DNA from: Armatimonadota bacterium
Lineage (GTDB): Bacteria > Armatimonadota > HRBIN16
Length of the DNA: 64,000 nucleotides
Direction of reading: 5' to 3'
Assembly (NCBI GenBank): GCA_963677485.1
Contig: OY781964.1
Span: forward strand, 5,156,041 to 5,220,040
Made by a program: the position numbers and the translations under genes. Positions 41,467 through 64,000 of this stretch are shown here, one piece after another. The notes beneath the pieces are model-generated. The model searched no databases. It saw only the letters and a list, made by a program, of their open reading frames with translations, and was not told where the DNA came from. How positions within the stretch are numbered: position 1 is the stretch's first letter; every line of letters starts with the position of its first letter.

Positions 41467-43026
41467 ATGGAAAGGCTAAGAATGCAGATCATAGAAGAGA
41501 TCATATTCCGACTGCGGCGTGGGCAGTCCCAACGAGCGATTTCTCGTGACACGGGCTGCGCTCGTAACACCGTCAGCCAATACGCACAGTGGGCTTCTCG
41601 ACTTGGATACCTGGCTCCAGATTCAGATATGCCGAGTATGGAGGCATTTCGTGACACCTTACCGCAGCGCAAACGACGCAGTAATGTGTCTAGTGCTGAA
41701 CCATACCGCGAAATCATCGAGACCTATCTCCAGACTCACATAGAGGCAGTGACCATCCACAACAACCTCAAACGACTATACGGGTTTACCGGTAGCTACT
41801 CTTCGGTTATTCGCTTCATTAACGGACTGACCCCCAAAGAGCAGTTGGCCATTATACGTCTAGAGACAGACCCAGGAAAACAGGCCCAGGTTGACTTCGG
41901 ATTTGTGGGGCAAATGAAGGACCCCGCAACAGGCAAGATGCGTTCAACGTATGCCTTCTTGATGACGCTATCACACTCTCGACATCAATATGTGGAGTTT
42001 GTATTCAATCAAAGGATACCCACATGGGTGAACTGCCATATCAACGCCTTTGAATTCTTCGGAGGCGTTCCAGAGGAACTTGTGATAGACAATCTAAAGT
42101 CAGCGGTTCTCAAAGCAGATATATACGACCCTGTCATCTCGGAGCCGTATCGGCAACTGGCCTTGCACTACGACTTCCTCATTCATCCGTGTAGAGTGAG
42201 AACCCCGGAGCATAAAGGAAAAGTGGAAAACGGGGTTCATTACGTGCAGCGAAACTTCATTGCAGGCCGGGAGTTCATGGATATCGACGAAGCGAACCTG
42301 CTTGTGAAGACCTGGATCACCCAAGAGGCAGGTCTGCGTAACCATGGAACCACACATAAACAGCCATTGGCGCAGTTCAATCAGGTAGAGAAGAGCACGC
42401 TTAAGTCATTACCAGACACGGAATTTGATCTCATTGAAGTTCGTAGTGCGAAAGTCCATCGGGACTGTCATGTTACAGTGTATGGTTCTTACTATTCCGT
42501 GCCCTACAGCTACATAGGCAGCCAAATGGACGTGCATCTGCACGAACGAGTGGTGCAGATATATGATAACGACCATAAACTAGTTGGAACACATCAAAGA
42601 GCGACACAACAAGGGCAGCGCATTACCCGCATGACTGATTACCCAACACATAAAGTGGCCTATATGGTTCTTTCAATCGAGAATTGCCTGGAATTAGGGC
42701 ATGACATCGGCCCCAGTTGTGTTACGGTGCTTAATGCTTTGCTGGCTGACAGGCCTGTAGACCGAAGACAATCCGTGAAGAGGATCGTCCGGCTAGTTCA
42801 AACGTACAGCAGTAGTCGCCTGGAAGCGGCCTGCGCACGCTCTCTCTATTACCAAGATGGTAGTTACCAACGCATTGCTAAGATACTGAGGGCCGGTACA
42901 GATCACGAGCCAATGGGAATAACATCTTCTCTTCCCCCTAAAAAAGACTACCTCTTCGCTCGTAGTGCCGACGAATTCATTTTGGTCAGTAATGCTGACA
43001 CCAATATGGAGGTAGAAGCGTGTTAA
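41467..43026 (+). CDS. istA: IS21 transposase IstA
   Basis: HTH, QAQVDFG, DNLKSAV, KGKVE DDE motifs. Confidence 0.96.
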   Translation: MERLRMQIIEEIIFRLRRGQSQRAISRDTGCARNTVSQYAQWASRLGYLAPDSDMPSMEAFRDTLPQRKRRSNVSSAEPYREIIETYLQTHIEAVTIHNNLKRLYGFTGSYSSVIRFINGLTPKEQLAIIRLETDPGKQAQVDFGFVGQMKDPATGKMRSTYAFLMTLSHSRHQYVEFVFNQRIPTWVNCHINAFEFFGGVPEELVIDNLKSAVLKADIYDPVISEPYRQLALHYDFLIHPCRVRTPEHKGKVENGVHYVQRNFIAGREFMDIDEANLLVKTWITQEAGLRNHGTTHKQPLAQFNQVEKSTLKSLPDTEFDLIEVRSAKVHRDCHVTVYGSYYSVPYSYIGSQMDVHLHERVVQIYDNDHKLVGTHQRATQQGQRITRMTDYPTHKVAYMVLSIENCLELGHDIGPSCVTVLNALLADRPVDRRQSVKRIVRLVQTYSSSRLEAACARSLYYQDGSYQRIAKILRAGTDHEPMGITSSLPPKKDYLFARSADEFILVSNADTNMEVEAC

Positions 43027-43787
43027 CTCACACACTGCTACCCAAGCTCAGGCAACTCAGATGGTCTGGCATGGTTGATAGCCTCGAAGAGAGAGCGGAG
43101 CTAGCCCGTGAGCAAAAGCTCTCACCAACGGAGTTCCTTGCGTTATTAGTAGATGATGAGCTTGAGCGACGCAGCCAAACTAAACAGGTAAAGATGGAGA
43201 AGGCGGCCTGTTTCGAGAACACGAAACTGCTGTCCCACTTCGACTTCAACGCTGTACCTACCCTTGATCGTTCGCTGGTAAGGGAGATGGCGACCTGCCA
43301 GTTAATCGCTCAACATGCCAACTGGCTGGTGTGTGGTCCCACTGGTGTGGGCAAGACACATCTAGCCACCGCCATAGGTTATGAGGCCATTAAGCGAAGC
43401 TACAGTGTTTATAACAGTTCTGTCCACAAGTTGCAACAGGAGATGTTTGCGGCCAGGGCAGACGATGCTTATACGCGGTTGATTAAGAAATTGGTCAACG
43501 TTGACCTCCTGATACTCGACGACTTTGGTCTTCGCCCCATCACAATTCAGGGAGCGGAAGACCTCTACGAGATCATCCACCAGAGATACGAGAAGGGCAG
43601 TATTGTATTGACATCTAATCGGGCTCCCTCCGAATGGCCGGAGATGTTTGGCGACTCTCTTCTCGCTTCAGCTGCTATGGACAGATTGACTCACCATGCC
43701 CGGGTGACTGTTGTCACCGGTGAGAGCTATCGCCAAAGGCAGCGCAGAGGGGAGGTAAGCAAGCCGGATAATGCATCCGTAGAGTGA
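43020..43787 (+). CDS. istB: IS21 helper ATPase IstB
   Basis: GPTGVGKTHLA, LLILDDFG, TSN, DRLTHH. Confidence 0.96.
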   Translation: MLTHTLLPKLRQLRWSGMVDSLEERAELAREQKLSPTEFLALLVDDELERRSQTKQVKMEKAACFENTKLLSHFDFNAVPTLDRSLVREMATCQLIAQHANWLVCGPTGVGKTHLATAIGYEAIKRSYSVYNSSVHKLQQEMFAARADDAYTRLIKKLVNVDLLILDDFGLRPITIQGAEDLYEIIHQRYEKGSIVLTSNRAPSEWPEMFGDSLLASAAMDRLTHHARVTVVTGESYRQRQRRGEVSKPDNASVE

Positions 43788-50351: not shown

Positions 50352-51119
50352 TCACTCTACGGATGCATTATCCGGCTTGCTTACCTCCCCTCTGCGCTGC
50401 CTTTGGCGATAGCTCTCACCGGTGACAACAGTCACCCGGGCATGGTGAGTCAATCTGTCCATAGCAGCTGAAGCGAGAAGAGAGTCGCCAAACATCTCCG
50501 GCCATTCGGAGGGAGCCCGATTAGATGTCAATACAATACTGCCCTTCTCGTATCTCTGGTGGATGATCTCGTAGAGGTCTTCCGCTCCCTGAATTGTGAT
50601 GGGGCGAAGACCAAAGTCGTCGAGTATCAGGAGGTCAACGTTGACCAATTTCTTAATCAACCGCGTATAAGCATCGTCTGCCCTGGCCGCAAACATCTCC
50701 TGTTGCAACTTGTGGACAGAACTGTTATAAACACTGTAGCTTCGCTTAATGGCCTCATAACCTATGGCGGTGGCTAGATGTGTCTTGCCCACACCAGTGG
50801 GACCACACACCAGCCAGTTGGCATGTTGAGCGATTAACTGGCAGGTCGCCATCTCCCTTACCAGCGAACGATCAAGGGTAGGTACAGCGTTGAAGTCGAA
50901 GTGGGACAGCAGTTTCGTGTTCTCGAAACAGGCCGCCTTCTCCATCTTTACCTGTTTAGTTTGGCTGCGTCGCTCAAGCTCATCATCTACTAATAACGCA
51001 AGGAACTCCGTTGGTGAGAGCTTTTGCTCACGGGCTAGCTCCGCTCTCTCTTCGAGGCTATCAACCATGCCAGACCATCTGAGTTGCCTGAGCTTGGGTA
51101 GCAGTGTGTGAGTTAACAC
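50352..51119 (-). CDS. istB: IS21 helper ATPase IstB
   Basis: Identical to 43020-43787. Confidence 0.96.
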   Translation of the reverse strand: MLTHTLLPKLRQLRWSGMVDSLEERAELAREQKLSPTEFLALLVDDELERRSQTKQVKMEKAACFENTKLLSHFDFNAVPTLDRSLVREMATCQLIAQHANWLVCGPTGVGKTHLATAIGYEAIKRSYSVYNSSVHKLQQEMFAARADDAYTRLIKKLVNVDLLILDDFGLRPITIQGAEDLYEIIHQRYEKGSIVLTSNRAPSEWPEMFGDSLLASAAMDRLTHHARVTVVTGESYRQRQRRGEVSKPDNASVE

Positions 51120-52672
51120 GCTTCTACCTCCATATTGGTGTCAGCATTACTGACCAAAATGAATTCGTCGGCACTACGAGCGAAGAGGTAGTCTTTTTTA
51201 GGGGGAAGAGAAGATGTTATTCCCATTGGCTCGTGATCTGTACCGGCCCTCAGTATCTTAGCAATGCGTTGGTAACTACCATCTTGGTAATAGAGAGAGC
51301 GTGCGCAGGCCGCTTCCAGGCGACTACTGCTGTACGTTTGAACTAGCCGGACGATCCTCTTCACGGATTGTCTTCGGTCTACAGGCCTGTCAGCCAGCAA
51401 AGCATTAAGCACCGTAACACAACTGGGGCCGATGTCATGCCCTAATTCCAGGCAATTCTCGATTGAAAGAACCATATAGGCCACTTTATGTGTTGGGTAA
51501 TCAGTCATGCGGGTAATGCGCTGCCCTTGTTGTGTCGCTCTTTGATGTGTTCCAACTAGTTTATGGTCGTTATCATATATCTGCACCACTCGTTCGTGCA
51601 GATGCACGTCCATTTGGCTGCCTATGTAGCTGTAGGGCACGGAATAGTAAGAACCATACACTGTAACATGACAGTCCCGATGGACTTTCGCACTACGAAC
51701 TTCAATGAGATCAAATTCCGTGTCTGGTAATGACTTAAGCGTGCTCTTCTCTACCTGATTGAACTGCGCCAATGGCTGTTTATGTGTGGTTCCATGGTTA
51801 CGCAGACCTGCCTCTTGTGTGATCCAGGTCTTCACAAGCAGGTTCGCTTCGTCGATATCCATGAACTCCCGGCCTGCAATGAAGTTTCGCTGCACGTAAT
51901 GAACCCCGTTTTCCACTTTTCCTTTATGCTCCGGGGTTCTCACTCTACACGGATGAATGAGGAAGTCGTAGTGCAAGGCCAGTTGCCGATACGGCTCCGA
52001 GATGACAGGGTCGTATATATCTGCTTTGAGAACCGCTGACTTTAGATTGTCTATCACAAGTTCCTCTGGAACGCCTCCGAAGAATTCAAAGGCGTTGATA
52101 TGGCAGTTCACCCATGTGGGTATCCTTTGATTGAATACAAACTCCACATATTGATGTCGAGAGTGTGATAGCGTCATCAAGAAGGCATACGTTGAACGCA
52201 TCTTGCCTGTTGCGGGGTCCTTCATTTGCCCCACAAATCCGAAGTCAACCTGGGCCTGTTTTCCTGGGTCTGTCTCTAGACGTATAATGGCCAACTGCTC
52301 TTTGGGGGTCAGTCCGTTAATGAAGCGAATAACCGAAGAGTAGCTACCGGTAAACCCGTATAGTCGTTTGAGGTTGTTGTGGATGGTCACTGCCTCTATG
52401 TGAGTCTGGAGATAGGTCTCGATGATTTCGCGGTATGGTTCAGCACTAGACACATTACTGCGTCGTTTGCGCTGCGGTAAGGTGTCACGAAATGCCTCCA
52501 TACTCGGCATATCTGAATCTGGAGCCAGGTATCCAAGTCGAGAAGCCCACTGTGCGTATTGGCTGACGGTGTTACGAGCGCAGCCCGTGTCACGAGAAAT
52601 CGCTCGTTGGGACTGCCCACGCCGCAGTCGGAATATGATCTCTTCTATGATCTGCATTCTTAGCCTTTCCAT
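51113..52672 (-). CDS. istA: IS21 transposase IstA
   Basis: Identical protein to 41467-43026. Confidence 0.96.
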   Translation of the reverse strand: MERLRMQIIEEIIFRLRRGQSQRAISRDTGCARNTVSQYAQWASRLGYLAPDSDMPSMEAFRDTLPQRKRRSNVSSAEPYREIIETYLQTHIEAVTIHNNLKRLYGFTGSYSSVIRFINGLTPKEQLAIIRLETDPGKQAQVDFGFVGQMKDPATGKMRSTYAFLMTLSHSRHQYVEFVFNQRIPTWVNCHINAFEFFGGVPEELVIDNLKSAVLKADIYDPVISEPYRQLALHYDFLIHPCRVRTPEHKGKVENGVHYVQRNFIAGREFMDIDEANLLVKTWITQEAGLRNHGTTHKQPLAQFNQVEKSTLKSLPDTEFDLIEVRSAKVHRDCHVTVYGSYYSVPYSYIGSQMDVHLHERVVQIYDNDHKLVGTHQRATQQGQRITRMTDYPTHKVAYMVLSIENCLELGHDIGPSCVTVLNALLADRPVDRRQSVKRIVRLVQTYSSSRLEAACARSLYYQDGSYQRIAKILRAGTDHEPMGITSSLPPKKDYLFARSADEFILVSNADTNMEVEAC

Positions 52673-52812
52673 GTATGCCCTCCTGATAAAACTGTGTCTA
52701 TCATTTAGGCGGTCAGGGGCATCGAAACACGGCTAGAGTGGTATAGTCATGCCGAACATGGGTGGCTCACACATGCCGAATGGGCTGGTATAGTGTAACC
52801 CGATTAGCGACA

Positions 52813-54144
52813 TCCGCAATCACAGACGTCATTAAGAACAGGCAGTCCATTTGTGACCAGCTAAGGCAAACCGCCGTGGCAGGAATTCGTATGGACATCG
52901 CCGACATTAGTGTAAGCCTTTACATAGGCAAGGTGGATTTCATCGCAGAACCTGCTGACCGAATCGCTGATGAACTCATTACATCAATGTATGACAGGCA
53001 TTTAGCTATGAGATGTGAGACCGCGGTCCGTGACTGGATTGTATGTGGTGCTGGGGGTATATTCCTCACTCCTTTCGGTCCACGTGCTTTACGGCCTGAT
53101 GAAGCGAGTTGGACTGGATCTATCTTTGAACCAGAAGGATGTGTGCGTGAGTTCAAGATGTCACGAGTAGATGCAGCCAAGAGGTTCCATCGTAAACTCC
53201 CTAATGACAGCGACACCGTCACCATAACCGAAGTGTATGACGGCACGGATGTCATCTATTATATTGGTGAATTCAAGCTATGCACATTCAAGAACTGGAG
53301 ATACACTCCACACTGGTTATTCGGGCTAGAGCGGCCTAGGCTGAATTCTACGCTTAATACACTGCCCATTTCAGTAATAGAAAGGGTAGCCGGTTTGTCC
53401 GATGCTTATGATTCCACCATCTATTCCATCGACCAGATATCAAAGCGGTCAGGTCTGGCCTTAGTGGATTCCACTATGCTGAAAGATCCTGAGAGTGCTG
53501 CCAATATCCATGAGCGGTATGAAGTGGTGGAAGTGGTGAGTTCTGAAAAGGGGTCAGCATTTAGTCCAGTTGAAAAACAGTCCATTAATGACCTAGTGGG
53601 TGGGTTCAACATTTTATCCAATGAGATCACAAGTCGGACCGGTGTGAATCCATACCAGCGTGGAATAGCTGCTCCAAGTGTTGACCTTGCCACTGAGAGT
53701 ATAGCCATTCAGTCACAGTCAGGTGTGCGTTCCAGCTACTATGGGGACCGTGTAGCCAGATGGCTGGATGCTGTGATCAAGGATTACCGGTCCTACCTTT
53801 GCCGTCTACCTTCCAATGAGATTGAATATGTGGAGTTGGTTATTGACGGGGAACCTATTACATTCGGTCCTGCCACTCCTTACAAGAACGTGCTGGATGG
53901 AATCACTATAAGGCTTGCCACGGTGGGATATGCTGAAGCGATCCAACGAAGGCAGGAAACACAGGGACTGCTTCAGATGCTTAATGGCGCACCAGGTGTA
54001 AACACACAACTACTTGTTAAACGACTACTTAGATCATACGGACTTAACCCAGATGAGTATATGACTCCAGAACCAACCCCTGAACAGTTACAACAGATGC
54101 AAGCATCACAGATGCAACAACCACAGGCCCAGCCTGCTCAATAA
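52813..54144 (+). pseudogene. Probable phage portal protein, 5'-truncated by IS21
   Basis: ITSRTGVNPYQRG...ATE motif and Q/P-rich tail typical of P22-like portals; the first 17 codons of the listed ORF come from the IS end. Confidence 0.7.
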
Positions 54145-55364: not shown

Positions 55365-56330
55365 ATGGCTGTAGGAAACTACGAACAGGCCCTCTCAGTG
55401 GGCATTCCCCTATTTTTGAATTCGTACCGTGACAACATCACCAACTATGCTCCCACTCTTAAAGCAATGAAGGAGTTCGGTGGCCTTATCACTAAAGCAG
55501 GAGGCACTGCTCTGCTTTGCCCAATCCGACACAGCGGCTCCAACGTTGTGGTGGTGGGTGCAAACCCTGCCGATGCTTCCATCTATGTGAACAGTGCAGT
55601 GTCCGACCAAGTAGACAGTGCAGCTTATAACTGGGCTGAACTGTGGTCTGGTATTGCACTTGCTGACCGAGAACTCAACAAACTCAAGAACGACAACGCC
55701 GCCCTTACTGAATACATCAGTTCCTACACTCAGGGATCGATTGAGGACTTCGGTAAGATGATTAACACCTCCCTCCATTCTACCGGTTACGCTTACGGAA
55801 GTGAGACGACCCTTGGTAACCTCCAAGGTGCGATCTACACAACCGGAACGCTGGGTGGGATCGACAGTTCCCAGTCTGGCAATGCCTTCTGGCGTTCGAC
55901 CGTGACTGATGCTGCTTCTGGTGTAGCTAGTCTTGCCATGATTGACAGTATGCAGGCCACGATCCAGTCGGTTGACGGCGAACAGCCTAACCTGATTGTC
56001 ACGACCCCTGCTATTTTCAGCAAGCTTCGCTCTGCCATCGTTGGTGCCCAGCGCATCGTGATTGGTGCTAACCTTGCTAAGGGTCAGCTTGGCATGAGTG
56101 CTGTGGAATACAATGGTTCGACCATTGTCGGTGATGCTTCATGTGCTGCTGAAACTATCTACTTCATCAACACTACGACCCTTCGCCTTGTGGTTAGTTC
56201 AGACGCCATCAAGGTTGAGGAATTCGCAGATGCACGTCCGTTACGTCAGTGGAAGCTTGGCTGGCACTGCCAGTTGACCTGCTCTGACCGCAAGAGTAAT
56301 GGCCGTCTCTACACCGTCAAACTTGCCTAA
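55365..56330 (+). CDS. Probable phage major capsid protein
   Basis: 321 aa; GTLGGID...FWRS, PNLIVTT, IYFINT, QLTCSDR; strong codon bias; followed by a terminator. Confidence 0.8.
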   Translation: MAVGNYEQALSVGIPLFLNSYRDNITNYAPTLKAMKEFGGLITKAGGTALLCPIRHSGSNVVVVGANPADASIYVNSAVSDQVDSAAYNWAELWSGIALADRELNKLKNDNAALTEYISSYTQGSIEDFGKMINTSLHSTGYAYGSETTLGNLQGAIYTTGTLGGIDSSQSGNAFWRSTVTDAASGVASLAMIDSMQATIQSVDGEQPNLIVTTPAIFSKLRSAIVGAQRIVIGANLAKGQLGMSAVEYNGSTIVGDASCAAETIYFINTTTLRLVVSSDAIKVEEFADARPLRQWKLGWHCQLTCSDRKSNGRLYTVKLA

Positions 56331-60731: not shown

Positions 60732-61373
60732 ATGAAACGACTAGATCTGACCGGTCAAGTGTTCACTAGATTGACCGTGATTGAGTATTCCCACACGAAT
60801 CAGAACAGCGACATAATCTGGAGATGCACTTGTCAATGCGGACAGGAAACTCTCGTCACAACCGAGAGTTTGAGAGGCGCACGCACCAAGAGTTGCGGTT
60901 GTTTGAAGAAGGATTCACCAAGACAACGCTTCAGGAAATATGGGAATGATCCTGTGACAGGCGTCTGCTTGAGCCGGTCAAGAGCCTACGGTTCATGGAT
61001 AAACATGCTTCACAGATGCTACAAGCCTTATGATAGGAACTATAACTTATATGGTGGCCGTGGTATAAATGTCTGTCCTGAGTGGCATGACTTCAAGCGG
61101 TTCATGGCTGACATGGGTGATCGACCTGACGGTATGAGCATTGACAGAATAGACCCTAATGGTAACTACGAACCATCGAACTGCCAATGGGCTACCACCA
61201 CTGCACAGGGACGCAACAAACGGGTCAAGAGCAATATCAGCATAGACGGTCAAACCGTGACTGTGATTGAACTGTCGGAAGTCCTTGATATTCCCATCAA
61301 CACACTTCACTCCAAACTACGCAACCTGTTCATTAAGAAATCACACGCGACGATAGAAAGTAAAGGTAACTAA
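60732..61373 (+). CDS. Free-standing phage HNH homing-endonuclease-like protein
   Basis: DLTGQVFTRLTV, WRCTCQCG, SCGC, YGGRGI, SIDRIDPNGNYEPSNCQWAT. Confidence 0.88.
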   Translation: MKRLDLTGQVFTRLTVIEYSHTNQNSDIIWRCTCQCGQETLVTTESLRGARTKSCGCLKKDSPRQRFRKYGNDPVTGVCLSRSRAYGSWINMLHRCYKPYDRNYNLYGGRGINVCPEWHDFKRFMADMGDRPDGMSIDRIDPNGNYEPSNCQWATTTAQGRNKRVKSNISIDGQTVTVIELSEVLDIPINTLHSKLRNLFIKKSHATIESKGN

Positions 61374-61374
61374 T

Positions 61375-61839
61375 ATGAGTTGGATGGGGATACCGATGCC
61401 CGGCGATGGCTATGCCTCCGCCGCGAGACAAGAACAACAGTCCAATCTGTCTGACATGAAAAGCCAGATCGGTCAACTATTAAATCAACAGAGCAATCCG
61501 CTTGCCGTTGGCGCTAGGGCACGTGATGAAGCATTGCTGCCTGGTTTAGCCATCGCTGACCAGTATTCAAGTGCTCATTCAAATACTGTTGGAGTACGGG
61601 ATATTATGCGTGCGCGTGCGTATTCTGCCGGATCGTCAGCTTATAACACAGCGTACCAGCAAGCACTGGCCGCTAATGTCCAGACAAGGATGGGGGCCAT
61701 CAATGGATACAGCAACTTAGCCAATATGCAGGGACAACTTGCTCAAGGATATGAAGCTCAGAGTGCTCAAGCCGCCGGAGCTTTAAGTCAGCTGCTCGGT
61801 TATGGTTTGTCGTTCATACCTAACAAGAATAAGGCTTAA
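61375..61839 (+). CDS. Probable internal virion/DNA-ejection protein
   Basis: A/Q/G/N-rich helical protein after the tail genes. Confidence 0.5.
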   Translation: MSWMGIPMPGDGYASAARQEQQSNLSDMKSQIGQLLNQQSNPLAVGARARDEALLPGLAIADQYSSAHSNTVGVRDIMRARAYSAGSSAYNTAYQQALAANVQTRMGAINGYSNLANMQGQLAQGYEAQSAQAAGALSQLLGYGLSFIPNKNKA

Positions 61840-61870
61840 CTATGTCAAATCCACTTAACCCACTCCCTAA

Positions 61871-63526
61871 GGCGGCTTAGCCGCAACCAAAAAAGGAATG
61901 ATTGCATTCGCCACGTAATATACATTCAAACACCCTTTCGTGAGGTTGCCCAGAATGACATCACTTCAAGAACGCTATGCAAAGCAGATAGCTGGGGTAT
62001 ATTCATGCTTCGACCGCATAGTTATCACCGGTACAATCCCAGGCTGGTGTCATAGCGACGGAATGGGCATCTATCTTCATCAACGCAACATCAGGCTATT
62101 TGACTTTCCTAAGGAATTTGCCGAACCTCTACGAGATGAGATCAAAGCCAATGCGGAACGCCTTGCCGTTACCAACAGCATTGAAATTGAGTATATACGC
62201 CGTGCCTCTTCATTTCGAAAAGAAGACCGCATCAAAGAGATCATTAGTAGTCGAGGGTGTCACCCCGGTCTCGTCCACATATTCTCAGTGTTGGAAAAAT
62301 GTCCTGCATACACCCCGTGGCACGACAAGATTACCCACAAAACCCGGCTGAATATCAAGGAGACCAAGTGTCTTCATTACTACTTCTATTTCATCGATGC
62401 AGAGTTTGGACTGTGCTATCTACGAGTTCCGACCTGGGTGCCCTTCCGTCTGCAATTCTATTGTAATGGACACAATTATCTCGCGCATTGCCTTCAATCC
62501 GAGGGAGTAGTTTTCACTCCACTGGACAACGCCTTTGTAAAAATCGACGACTTTAGCTGTGCTCAGAGGCTGGCAGACGCTTTTCCTGCTGATAAGCTGC
62601 ACCATGCGCTGGATGCATTTGCCAGAATGTATTGCCCCGTGATACGGCTTGCTGACAATTCATATCATTGGTCGCTAATGCAGGTGGAATATGCTACAGA
62701 CATCGTGTTCAAACGCGCCGAAGACCTCAAAGCCATCTACGATAATCTAGTCAAAACAGCGATACATACGGTAACGCCAGAGTCTATCGCGATGTTTCTT
62801 GGTAAGAAACTTGATGGGCGAACACTCGCTGAGATCGGCACTGACTACAAGTTCGATCGCCGCATACAAGGCACGCGCATCAAACACTACATGGGATGGG
62901 CTTCTATCAAAATGTATGACAAGCAAGGGATAATCTTGCGTATCGAGACGACTGTGAATGACGTCTCTGAATTTAAACACTACCGTGAGGTAGAACATCA
63001 TGATGGGACGACTGAGATTAAATACGCCCCTATGCAAAAGACCATCTACAGCCTTCCTCCATTGAGGGAACTGTTATTATCTGCAAACAACAGATATCTT
63101 GACTTTCTTTCCGCCCTTGATGACAACAGCGATGGTGAACATCAGATCATCAAAATCGCGACCTCGACCACCCGTGATCATCGCTCGTATCGAGGATTCA
63201 ACCTTTTCCTCAAGAAGGATTTGGAATGTCTCATTGCACTTGCTCGCGGAGAGGGATGCATCAGCGGGATCACAAACCGTATGCTTCAAAAAGCCTTACC
63301 GCAGATGTCCAGCTCTCAGATATCATACTTCATCAAGCGATGCCGAGTATTCCGGCTCGTTAAAAAATGCGGTAAACGCTACAAATACTACCTCACTGCA
63401 CTTGGCAAGCGTATCATCATGGCAGCACTTGCTATTCGCCAGATCGTTGTGCCTAACGCTTTGTGTGGTGCGTAATATCAGAATATTCTATACACCGTGT
63501 TCAAAATATGGTTGGTAAGATACTAA
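61871..63526 (+). mobile_element. Unclassified single-ORF insertion element bounded by CTAA direct repeats
   Basis: CTAA at 61867-61870 and 63523-63526; removal restores the host ORF; left-end hairpin GCGGCTTAGCCGC; CAACCA/TGGTTG subterminal inverted motif. Confidence 0.85.
61955..63475 (+). CDS. Putative non-canonical transposase (Rep_trans-like motif, C-terminal wHTH-like region)
   Basis: Only long ORF of the element; SIKMYDKQGIILRIETTVND; LHYYFYFID; C-terminal LVKK...YKYYLTALG wing; GAGG RBS. Confidence 0.7.
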   Translation: MTSLQERYAKQIAGVYSCFDRIVITGTIPGWCHSDGMGIYLHQRNIRLFDFPKEFAEPLRDEIKANAERLAVTNSIEIEYIRRASSFRKEDRIKEIISSRGCHPGLVHIFSVLEKCPAYTPWHDKITHKTRLNIKETKCLHYYFYFIDAEFGLCYLRVPTWVPFRLQFYCNGHNYLAHCLQSEGVVFTPLDNAFVKIDDFSCAQRLADAFPADKLHHALDAFARMYCPVIRLADNSYHWSLMQVEYATDIVFKRAEDLKAIYDNLVKTAIHTVTPESIAMFLGKKLDGRTLAEIGTDYKFDRRIQGTRIKHYMGWASIKMYDKQGIILRIETTVNDVSEFKHYREVEHHDGTTEIKYAPMQKTIYSLPPLRELLLSANNRYLDFLSALDDNSDGEHQIIKIATSTTRDHRSYRGFNLFLKKDLECLIALARGEGCISGITNRMLQKALPQMSSSQISYFIKRCRVFRLVKKCGKRYKYYLTALGKRIIMAALAIRQIVVPNALCGA

Positions 63527-64000
63527 CCTACCAGGATATGATGCCTTTGGTGGATTACTTACTCCACAGCCACAAGTAGGACCTACACTTGAAAATGCCA
63601 CAACTGAAGCTGTGAACTCACTTCCTGCTGGGTCTGTGTATGCTCGTACTCAGGCTAAGGATCAAGCCAATATGGAACAGGCCGTGCCTGTAACTACTCC
63701 AGTAGTTACCTCATCAGTTAAATCAGTAACTCCTACAACTAAATCTTCAATGATGCATTTACTCCAAAGCCTATGGATGCAGTGGATGTCACTCGAATTA
63801 ATAATTTGACATCGGATATTACTACATCACAACAAGAACTGGATGGATTAAACGAAACTGAGTTAGCTAGAAAGATGATGGAAGCTAACCCACCCGGACC
63901 TAAGGTTGCGGCACCGGTGGCTCCAGCAGTTCCTGTGCTTCCTGACCTTCCTGCCAATGAAAAGCCTAGCCTACTTCAGCTCATTGGGTTAGCACTTCCT

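Follow-up and report, generated by a model that had tools for sequence, protein, structure and literature searches.

A widespread CTAA-targeting insertion sequence whose transposase is predicted to be a tyrosine nuclease of the TATA-binding-protein fold

How did a 1656-bp segment with a single gene come to lie inside a small prophage open reading frame (ORF), and what kind of enzyme moves it? The question is raised by the last 64 kb of the contig OY781964.1 of an Armatimonadota bacterium (assembly GCA_963677485.1), the stretch of 64,000 nucleotides analysed here and called the window; the host genome consists of this single contig of 5.22 Mb. The initial annotation, made from the letters of the window, had described the segment correctly: it holds one long ORF only (506 amino acids from ATG61955), reads CTAA on both sides (61867-61870 and 63523-63526, with a spacing of 1652 bp), and its removal leaves a seamless frame, in which the reading opened by ATG61842 resumes at 63528 once 1656 bp are deleted. 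Analysis of the genome revealed that the unit 61867-63522 is an intact and mobile insertion sequence (IS). We consider it likely that this IS is autonomous and that its protein, from its predicted structure a tyrosine nuclease of the TATA-binding-protein (TBP) fold with a MarR-like winged helix, moves a single strand of the element into C|CTAA.

61867 to 63522, + strand: insertion sequence, CTAA ... AAGATA, 1656 bp, bounded by the limits of similarity between copies, by frame restoration and by uninterrupted paralogous sites
61955 to 63475, + strand: predicted transposase gene, a single ORF of 506 amino acids
61842 to 61866, + strand: 5′ part of the interrupted small prophage ORF, from ATG61842 to C61866, which is the invariant base before the insertion point
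63523 to 63809, + strand: 3′ part of the interrupted prophage ORF, recognised by frame continuation, the two parts making together about 103 codons

The host genome contains 22 copies of the element. Over 1652 bp, 20 of them show 100% identity and the other two 99.94% and 99.2%; the transposase frame is open in all 22. Long ORFs are clearly split by eight copies, and in each of the eight the frame comes back only if 1652+1 (mod 3) bases are taken out, as expected for an element of 1656 bp. Between its ends and the gene the element leaves 88 and 47 bases of non-coding DNA, and no inverted repeat joins its termini, in agreement with the initial annotation, which had seen no long terminal inverted repeats. 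The element was not found in two genomes of the same genus and 15 other genomes of the same family, while a search of 13 genomes of other families gave one weak match at 24% identity.

Two arrangements of copies were observed besides. A second copy lies in inverted orientation at contig positions 395-2046 (- strand), about 870 bp past the window end across the contig join, and also splits an ORF, so that the prophage carries two copies of the element facing each other. Elsewhere, the copies at contig positions 3219956-3221607 and 3224651-3226302 have the same orientation and are only 3 kb apart, which could be a composite or the result of a local hop.

Comparison of the junctions then established which of the two CTAA belongs to the element.

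61867 to 61870, + strand: left-end tetranucleotide CTAA, borne by the element, constant in 22/22 copies while the right 4-mer varies; empty paralogs have CTAT there
63523 to 63526, + strand: CTAA of the original target, outside the element; the right 4-mer varies and equals the empty-site sequence

The left junction reads C-CTAA in 22/22 copies, the base before the element being C each time, and the right 4-mer is CTAA in 17, CTAT in four and TTAA in one. Copy 824520 lies in repeated sequence, of which two uninterrupted paralogs with 100% identical flanks read ...AACAC|CTAT|ACTC...; at the occupied site, CTAA is read at the left junction and CTAT at the right one. The site paralog of copy 2411328 holds a single CTAA. 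For copy 1898196, a frame of 573 codons is restored when the right CTAT is kept, and a stop results when the left CTAA is kept. The counterpart site of the TTAA copy in a sister species has TTTA, and the codon reading is more parsimonious with TTAA as the target. A usable counterpart in the two genomes of the same genus was found for the flanks of copy 4184651, but for none of copies 824520, 1898196, 2650757 and 2951279. Taken together, the constant left 4-mer, the variable right 4-mer and the empty sites show that the element carries its own CTAA and is best delimited as 61867 to 63522. Insertion takes place at C|CTAA, variants being tolerated to some extent, and creates no duplication. The CTAA specificity advanced in the initial annotation is thus borne out by the 22 copies and the empty sites; both flanking CTAA are present, but they are not a direct repeat across the family, the left one belonging to the element and the right one to the target, with the variants CTAT and TTAA. 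The target CTAA at 63523-63526 would regenerate a cleavable right junction.

Copies in other genomes behave in the same manner. In several Acidobacteria the element lies within a repeat, ...CCGCTC-C-CT[G/C/A]A-CGGTCGCGG[C/T]TCC, and the right junctions CTGA (locus L075) and CTTA (loci L035 and L100) coincide with the variable base of this repeat while the left end stays CTAA. At loci L065 and L099 the right 4-mer is TTAA, again with CTAA at the left end. A deltaproteobacterial metagenome-assembled genome (MAG) shows the left 4-mer CCAA in 3/3 copies and CTAA on the right in 3/3; one right flank there runs on into the rest of a DDE transposase gene, and an intact paralog of this gene has the sequence ...GGTC|CTAACC.... 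At locus L068 (150-200), the right end of a related, different element directly meets the resident left end, only one CTAA separating the two, either as a tandem or after use of the resident end as a target. Two other models of the junctions, a 3-bp duplication of CTA and an insertion 3′ of CCTA with the right CTA owned by the element, were considered and dropped, since the right variants TTAA, CTTA and CTGA follow the target sequence and the CCAA-type left end differs from the CTAA targets.

Some of these landing sites deserve a separate mention. The Acidobacteria loci L118-L146 hold a repeat resembling repetitive extragenic palindromes, ...AACCGCTCCCT[N]ACGGTCGCGG[C/T]TCC, which occurs in tens of copies, often as inverted pairs, and is a recurrent landing site of the element. 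At the deltaproteobacterial loci L147 and L160 a copy sits in the DDE transposase gene of another IS, yet the DNA to its left bears no relation to that gene, and an exchange or deletion of the flanks seems to have followed the insertion.

The ends themselves are conserved far beyond the host. One genome per species was scanned with a closer alignment, which confirmed at least 515 loci, and 80 of these were kept for the analysis of the ends. They span Acidobacteriota, Nitrospirota, Desulfobacterota, Planctomycetota, Chloroflexota, Bacteroidota, Firmicutes, Gammaproteobacteria, Armatimonadota and others, including Spirochaetota, Gemmatimonadota, a Parcubacteria MAG, Candidatus Brocadia and a Bathyarchaeia MAG. 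In more than 15 phyla the ends follow one plan: CTAA comes first, then a GC hairpin with a covarying 5-bp stem and an AACCAA box; the gene follows, and ...GTAAGnnA closes the element.

61872 to 61884, + strand: left-end hairpin GCGGC-TTA-GCCGC, one base past CTAA, with a single-strand DNA fold of -5.9 kcal/mol
61885 to 61896, + strand: AACCAA(A)AAGG box adjoining the hairpin
63510 to 63522, + strand: right-end box GGTTGGTAAGATA, with the family consensus ...GTAAGnnA; the element ends at A63522

Under strict criteria, a script recovered the GC hairpin and, immediately after it, AACC[AG]A ahead of the gene at 62 of the 80 loci; four of the 18 missed loci had fewer than 90 bases of upstream sequence. 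For the left end we aligned 43 distinct ends (51 found, minus nine duplicates from the same genome, plus the window copy), many phyla being represented. CC.AA and AACCAA are invariant in 43/43, and the box AACCAA(A)AAGG is, judging by this conservation, a probable protein-binding site. Pairing holds in 93% of the cells of the 5-bp stem, and 12 cells are compensatory, against 1.2 in shuffles, none of 500 shuffles reaching as high; no one-sided changes were seen in the two outer pairs. The right-end alignment comprised 50 elements (49 of 59 distinct right ends, 10 mis-anchored or near-duplicate rows having been dropped, plus the window copy), and TAAG..A followed by CTA is conserved in it. Of the hairpins and inverted motifs noted in the initial annotation, GCGGC/GCCGC is thus real and conserved, but CTAAG/CTTAG and CAACCA/TGGTTG are specific to the lineage and not conserved in relatives; the alternative CTAAG/CTTAG hairpin was rejected, since it relies on the TTA loop of the window's lineage. 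A guide pairing of the IS608 type between the right-end GTAAGG and the CCTAAC junction was likewise dropped, having one central mismatch and no covariation support. The comparison of homolog flanks proposed in that annotation has yielded conserved ends and a hairpin across phyla, together with empty sites, found as paralogs in the host genome. No Rfam match was obtained at E<=1 in 61700-63700.

In the Bathyarchaeia MAG (locus L061) there is one near-complete copy with an internal TGA, besides several decayed fragments. These copies may reflect an old invasion or a contamination of the bin.

To which class the protein belongs is less easily read from databases. The 506-amino-acid protein has no catalytic family in Pfam, NCBIfam or PHROGs, and neither it nor 70 relatives included in the Pfam scan match any DDE, HUH, DEDD or serine-recombinase family, as the initial reading of its motifs had anticipated. 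Its relatives number at least 7998 in 90% clusters at E<=1e-3, out of 8000 candidates scored; in a library at 50% identity, 6547 cluster representatives match at E<=1e-3, of which 3171 at E<=1e-10. Among the matches listed, the relatives are named only 'hypothetical protein' or 'MarR family transcriptional regulator', the latter label agreeing with the initial annotation, and none of the 120 relatives has a Pfam domain on record. The Pfam scan of the 70 relatives found winged-helix families only, at the C-terminus (HVO_A0261_N in 31/70, HTH_45 in 14/70 and MarR in 5/70). For the core, neither phmmer against PDB sequences nor the ESM Atlas gave anything, the Atlas returning only unnamed or helix-turn-helix clusters for the protein.

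61955 to 63040, + strand: TBP-like catalytic core, residues 1-362, predicted from the AlphaFold model and Foldseek
63212 to 63472, + strand: winged helix, residues ~420-506, from Foldseek and profile matches
62915 to 62917, + strand: codon of the proposed catalytic Tyr321, an invariant residue

AlphaFold2, run with the family alignment, gave models with a predicted local distance difference test score of 93.9 (full length) and 95.1 (residues 1-362). In the full-length model a long antiparallel sheet with helices is followed by a helical linker and the winged helix. The top PDB match in Foldseek, for the whole protein and the core alike, is RepSTK1 (4cij), a Rep_trans rolling-circle initiator (whole protein, E 2.6e-3 and probability 0.94; core, E 1.8e-3 and probability 0.98), and TATA-binding proteins rank next. 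No RNase H or DDE fold was returned by this check, which the initial annotation had suggested. Among viral models, Foldseek retrieved TBP-like proteins, including A0A2N9QVX7, which is also a match that the authors of the Rep-Arvir enzyme report for it (PMC13107129).

Conservation of residues points in the same direction. The Rep_trans active site, as presented by Carr et al. (PMC4797284) and in a 2017 review (PMC5714925), has its catalytic tyrosine between R and K and further includes RxE, RxDxAxD and an N-terminal Asp, arranged as motifs N' (D), I (RxD..A.D), III (YxK) and IV ([W/L]xRxE), each on a separate strand. In 70 full-length relatives of 28-67% identity, the invariant residues include D20, R21, Y143, Y145, E245, K319, Y321, R329 and E331, and D249 and K323 are present in at least 90% of the sequences; His-x-His is absent among the invariant columns. 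The motifs of the family, D20, Q243-x-E245-x-A-x-D249, K319-x-Y321-x-K323 and I327-x-R329-x-E331, keep the Rep_trans order and lie in the model on four separate strands (12-27, 238-252, 316-323 and 327-334), with Q/E in motif I where Rep_trans has R/D. Alignment with nine true Rep_trans proteins, drawn from genomes with PF02486, sets RIYDK...WIRxE against KMYDK...LRIE in the family, and hhalign pairs motifs III and IV and the acidic strand with those of Rep_trans. The resemblance of IKMYDK...LRIET to the catalytic-tyrosine region of Rep_trans, put forward in the initial annotation, is thus upheld by the invariant residues, by this pairing and by the nearest solved fold.

With Rep_trans (RepC/RepD of pT181/pC221, RepSTK1, MOBT relaxases, CTXphi RstA) the family has in common the motif order (N-terminal Asp, acidic x-A-x-D strand, [RK]-x-Y-x-K, [WLI]-x-R-x-E) and, as predicted, a TBP-like sheet that bears the catalytic residues and an action beside a GC hairpin. 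Unlike these enzymes, its core is about 100 residues longer, a MarR-like winged helix is added at the C-terminus, the gene sits in a 1.66-kb multi-copy chromosomal insertion sequence instead of a plasmid, phage or conjugative element, and the nick is proposed at a point some bases 5′ to the hairpin and not in its loop. The fusion of a TBP-fold domain to a MarR-like winged helix is given, in the portion of PMC13107129 that defines Rep-Arvir, as the distinctive feature of that group and as absent from bacterial Rep_trans; the 506-amino-acid protein shows this architecture in its predicted structure. Rep-Arvir (DUF7845, PF25227; RepSNJ2 of the betapleolipovirus SNJ2), as described in the same portion of PMC13107129, also uses a conserved hairpin as cis site, and the spacing of its acidic residues and tyrosine, E25/D207/Y283/E303, is similar to D20/E245/Y321/E331 here, with KHYYM around its tyrosine where the family has KMYDK. 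It is there an initiator of archaeal virus and plasmid replication, unlike the family, which is mostly bacterial and forms an insertion sequence.

From these data the best reading is a movement by rolling-circle or peel-and-paste transposition. The protein would bind the left-end hairpin and the AACCAA box, and the ORF-sense strand would be nicked just 5′ of the element CTAA (C|CTAA, a position predicted to within ~2 nt), Tyr321 becoming joined to the 5′ phosphate and a metal being held by D20, E245/D249 and E331. The strand could then be displaced by replication from the 3′-OH of the flank, or peeled off. A second cut at the right junction ...A|CTAA, at the old target CTAA, would allow the ends to join into a circle with the junction ...A-CTAA-hairpin, and this junction would be exchanged with a target C|CTAA, with CTAT, TTAA, CTTA and CTGA tolerated. 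On landing, the element would have its own CTAA on the left and the target 4-mer on the right, without duplication. Such a strand exchange would leave the left 4-mer constant and let the right 4-mer follow the target; it would also require that the target resemble the first four bases of the element, and a resident end could then serve as a target. Two successive cleavages would need two tyrosines, provided by a dimer as in Rep_trans, or perhaps by the invariant Y143/Y145. A complex prediction with two copies of the core scored 0.00, which counts neither way. Sequencing runs, available as contigs in which such forms cannot appear, revealed no joint, empty site or circle over 61400-63950.

Several results weigh against this reading. 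The joint is placed 5′ of the tetranucleotide by parsimony, from a small number of cases, with a possible error of 1-2 bases. At the right end, RNAalifold on the 50 sequences gave no consensus hairpin, and the stem proposed there is moderately supported (62% paired against 53% in shuffles, 53 compensatory cells against 30) and poor in the window's own copy. Regarding the enzyme, no PDB match in Foldseek reached E<=1e-3 and, on the target, template modelling scores stay at 0.31-0.34; among PDB sequences the family profile matched a MarR structure, finding only the winged helix; and hhalign gave a probability of 3.5-6.4% (E 0.012-0.006) against Rep_trans, which is not significant alone. The PF02486 search returned no candidate in the whole host genome, the same search having matched 9/301 other genomes, and no match to Rep_trans (PF02486) or DUF7845 was obtained in the Pfam-A scan of the 70 family members. 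Finally, with origin and terminus placed from GC skew at ~2.14 and ~4.74 Mb, the orientation of the copies relative to replication (15/22) is not significant, and thus does not back the idea that one fork strand is strictly targeted. With weak scores for both fold and profile, and no recognition by the PF02486 model, we describe the protein only as Rep_trans/Rep-Arvir-like in predicted fold, motifs and architecture, and not as a shown member of either Pfam family. In the phylum of the archaeal MAG, PF25227 was not found in 251 genomes.

The alternative that survives best, although we regard it as unlikely, keeps the same enzyme and ends and makes the protein a conservative site-specific recombinase, acting through a double-stranded circle with an IS110-like logic and no rolling-circle or single-strand intermediate. 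A C|CTAA target that mimics the element's own junction would suit such an enzyme, as would the lack of a significant replication-strand bias and the fact that the full recognition site (right-end box, CTAA, hairpin and AACCAA) exists only in a joined junction, of which one was seen, at L068. However, the left 4-mer always comes from the element and the right one always from the target, as expected of a single-strand exchange, and a staggered exchange of two strands should give both. A hairpin that is conserved and covaries suggests that the DNA is single-stranded or extruded, and the 20 identical copies out of 22 suit copying. The nearest relatives of the enzyme, moreover, nick one strand only according to the part of PMC4797284 that treats their activity.

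A far weaker candidate is a cut-and-paste transposase of a divergent, metal-dependent DDE-like kind, which would duplicate 2-4 bp (TA, CTA or CTAA) of a CTAA target, as relatives of IS5/IS630 do. Elements of the IS5 and IS630 types have a preference for targets of the CTAG, CTAA or TA kind. Three invariant acidic residues (D20, E245 and E331) and the CTAA found on both sides of 17/22 copies could be read in this way, but there is no RNase H-like or DDE family or fold match, terminal inverted repeats are missing, the 4-mers differ in 5/22 copies and in other genomes with the left one always constant, the empty sites show that the left 4-mer is no copy of the target, and the invariant, lysine-flanked tyrosine lies on a sheet. 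It is equally improbable that the protein is no transposase, being instead a winged-helix regulator, as its database name of MarR regulator suggests, or the initiator of a small integrated replicon, as its fold relatives initiate plasmid and virus replication in the parts of PMC4797284 and PMC13107129 on their function, with a host or helper enzyme moving the element: the protein is the sole gene of a 1656-bp unit whose ends co-vary with it across more than 15 phyla, 22 chromosomal copies lie inside genes, the winged helix makes up only about the last 90 of 506 residues, and no other recombinase gene travels with the element.

Transposition of a single strand by a Rep_trans/Rep-Arvir-like enzyme therefore remains the reading we prefer, and among known insertion sequences the closest in behaviour are IS91/ISCR and IS200/IS605, the closest in enzyme being Rep_trans and Rep-Arvir. 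Like IS91/ISCR, the element has a single gene, no inverted repeats and no target duplication. IS91/ISCR elements also share with it a specific tetranucleotide outside one end that resembles the sequence at the other end. Unlike these HUH Y2 enzymes, the family has no HUH motif or Y2 match, and its tyrosine is carried by a strand rather than a helix. Proposed ori-like and ter-like ends are a further common point, in the part of PMC5714925 concerned with these elements. With IS200/IS605 it shares a hairpin adjacent to the end, insertion beside a fixed word of 4-5 nt, and the absence of duplication and of inverted repeats; unlike these HUH Y1 elements, it has an unrelated enzyme with no Y1 match, a strong hairpin on the left and a moderately supported one on the right, and no strong replication-strand bias (15/22). 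It differs from IS5/IS630 DDE elements in having no DDE family or fold, no terminal inverted repeats and no identical target duplication, and from IS110 in lacking DEDD/Transposase_20 domains and any Rfam match for a structured RNA at 61700-63700.

The surroundings of the window copy were assigned to a prophage from the phage genes found with PHROGs around the element, namely a major head protein (55365-56330) and a head-tail adaptor-like protein (52762-54144); the interrupted ORF itself has no PHROG match. In the same structural region, just upstream of the split ORF, PHROGs also identified an HNH endonuclease gene (60732-61373). An IS21-family element is present as two inverted copies, at 41467-43787 (+ strand) and 50352-52672 (- strand), which bracket about 6.5 kb of the prophage region; from Pfam matches and ORF sizes, each copy encodes a 519-amino-acid rve/Mu-transposase-C protein and a 255-amino-acid IstB ATPase.

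The catalytic classes of transposases comprise DDE, DEDD, HUH Y1 and Y2, serine, tyrosine recombinase and Cas1 enzymes. No description of a Rep_trans-type or TBP-fold transposase, or of the element, was found in the full-text literature, ISfinder being outside the scope of this search. In the sections of PMC13107129 and PMC5714925 that list roles for the TBP fold, replication and conjugation are named and transposition is not among them. On balance we lean towards the view that the element represents a new prokaryotic transposase class, in which a TBP-fold, Rep_trans/Rep-Arvir-like tyrosine nickase with a winged helix serves one of the most widespread IS families, which extends over thousands of bacterial lineages, reaches archaea and has been missed by every annotation pipeline, one strand being inserted into C|CTAA without duplication through a split recognition site completed only in the circular junction.

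If true, a Rep_trans-like class would be added to the catalytic classes of transposases, and the second great family of rolling-circle initiators would be tied to transposition, as IS91 and the Helitrons did for HUH enzymes. The finding is also relevant to the recent proposal that TBP-fold Rep proteins are ancient and common to bacteria and archaea, and a small, single-protein, sequence-specific and duplication-free integrase may interest tool builders. The family is very large (6547 clusters at 50% identity), and its members are labelled as regulators or hypothetical proteins, so that genome annotations miss an active source of gene disruption, here at 22 sites including a prophage, and mislabel it as a regulator.

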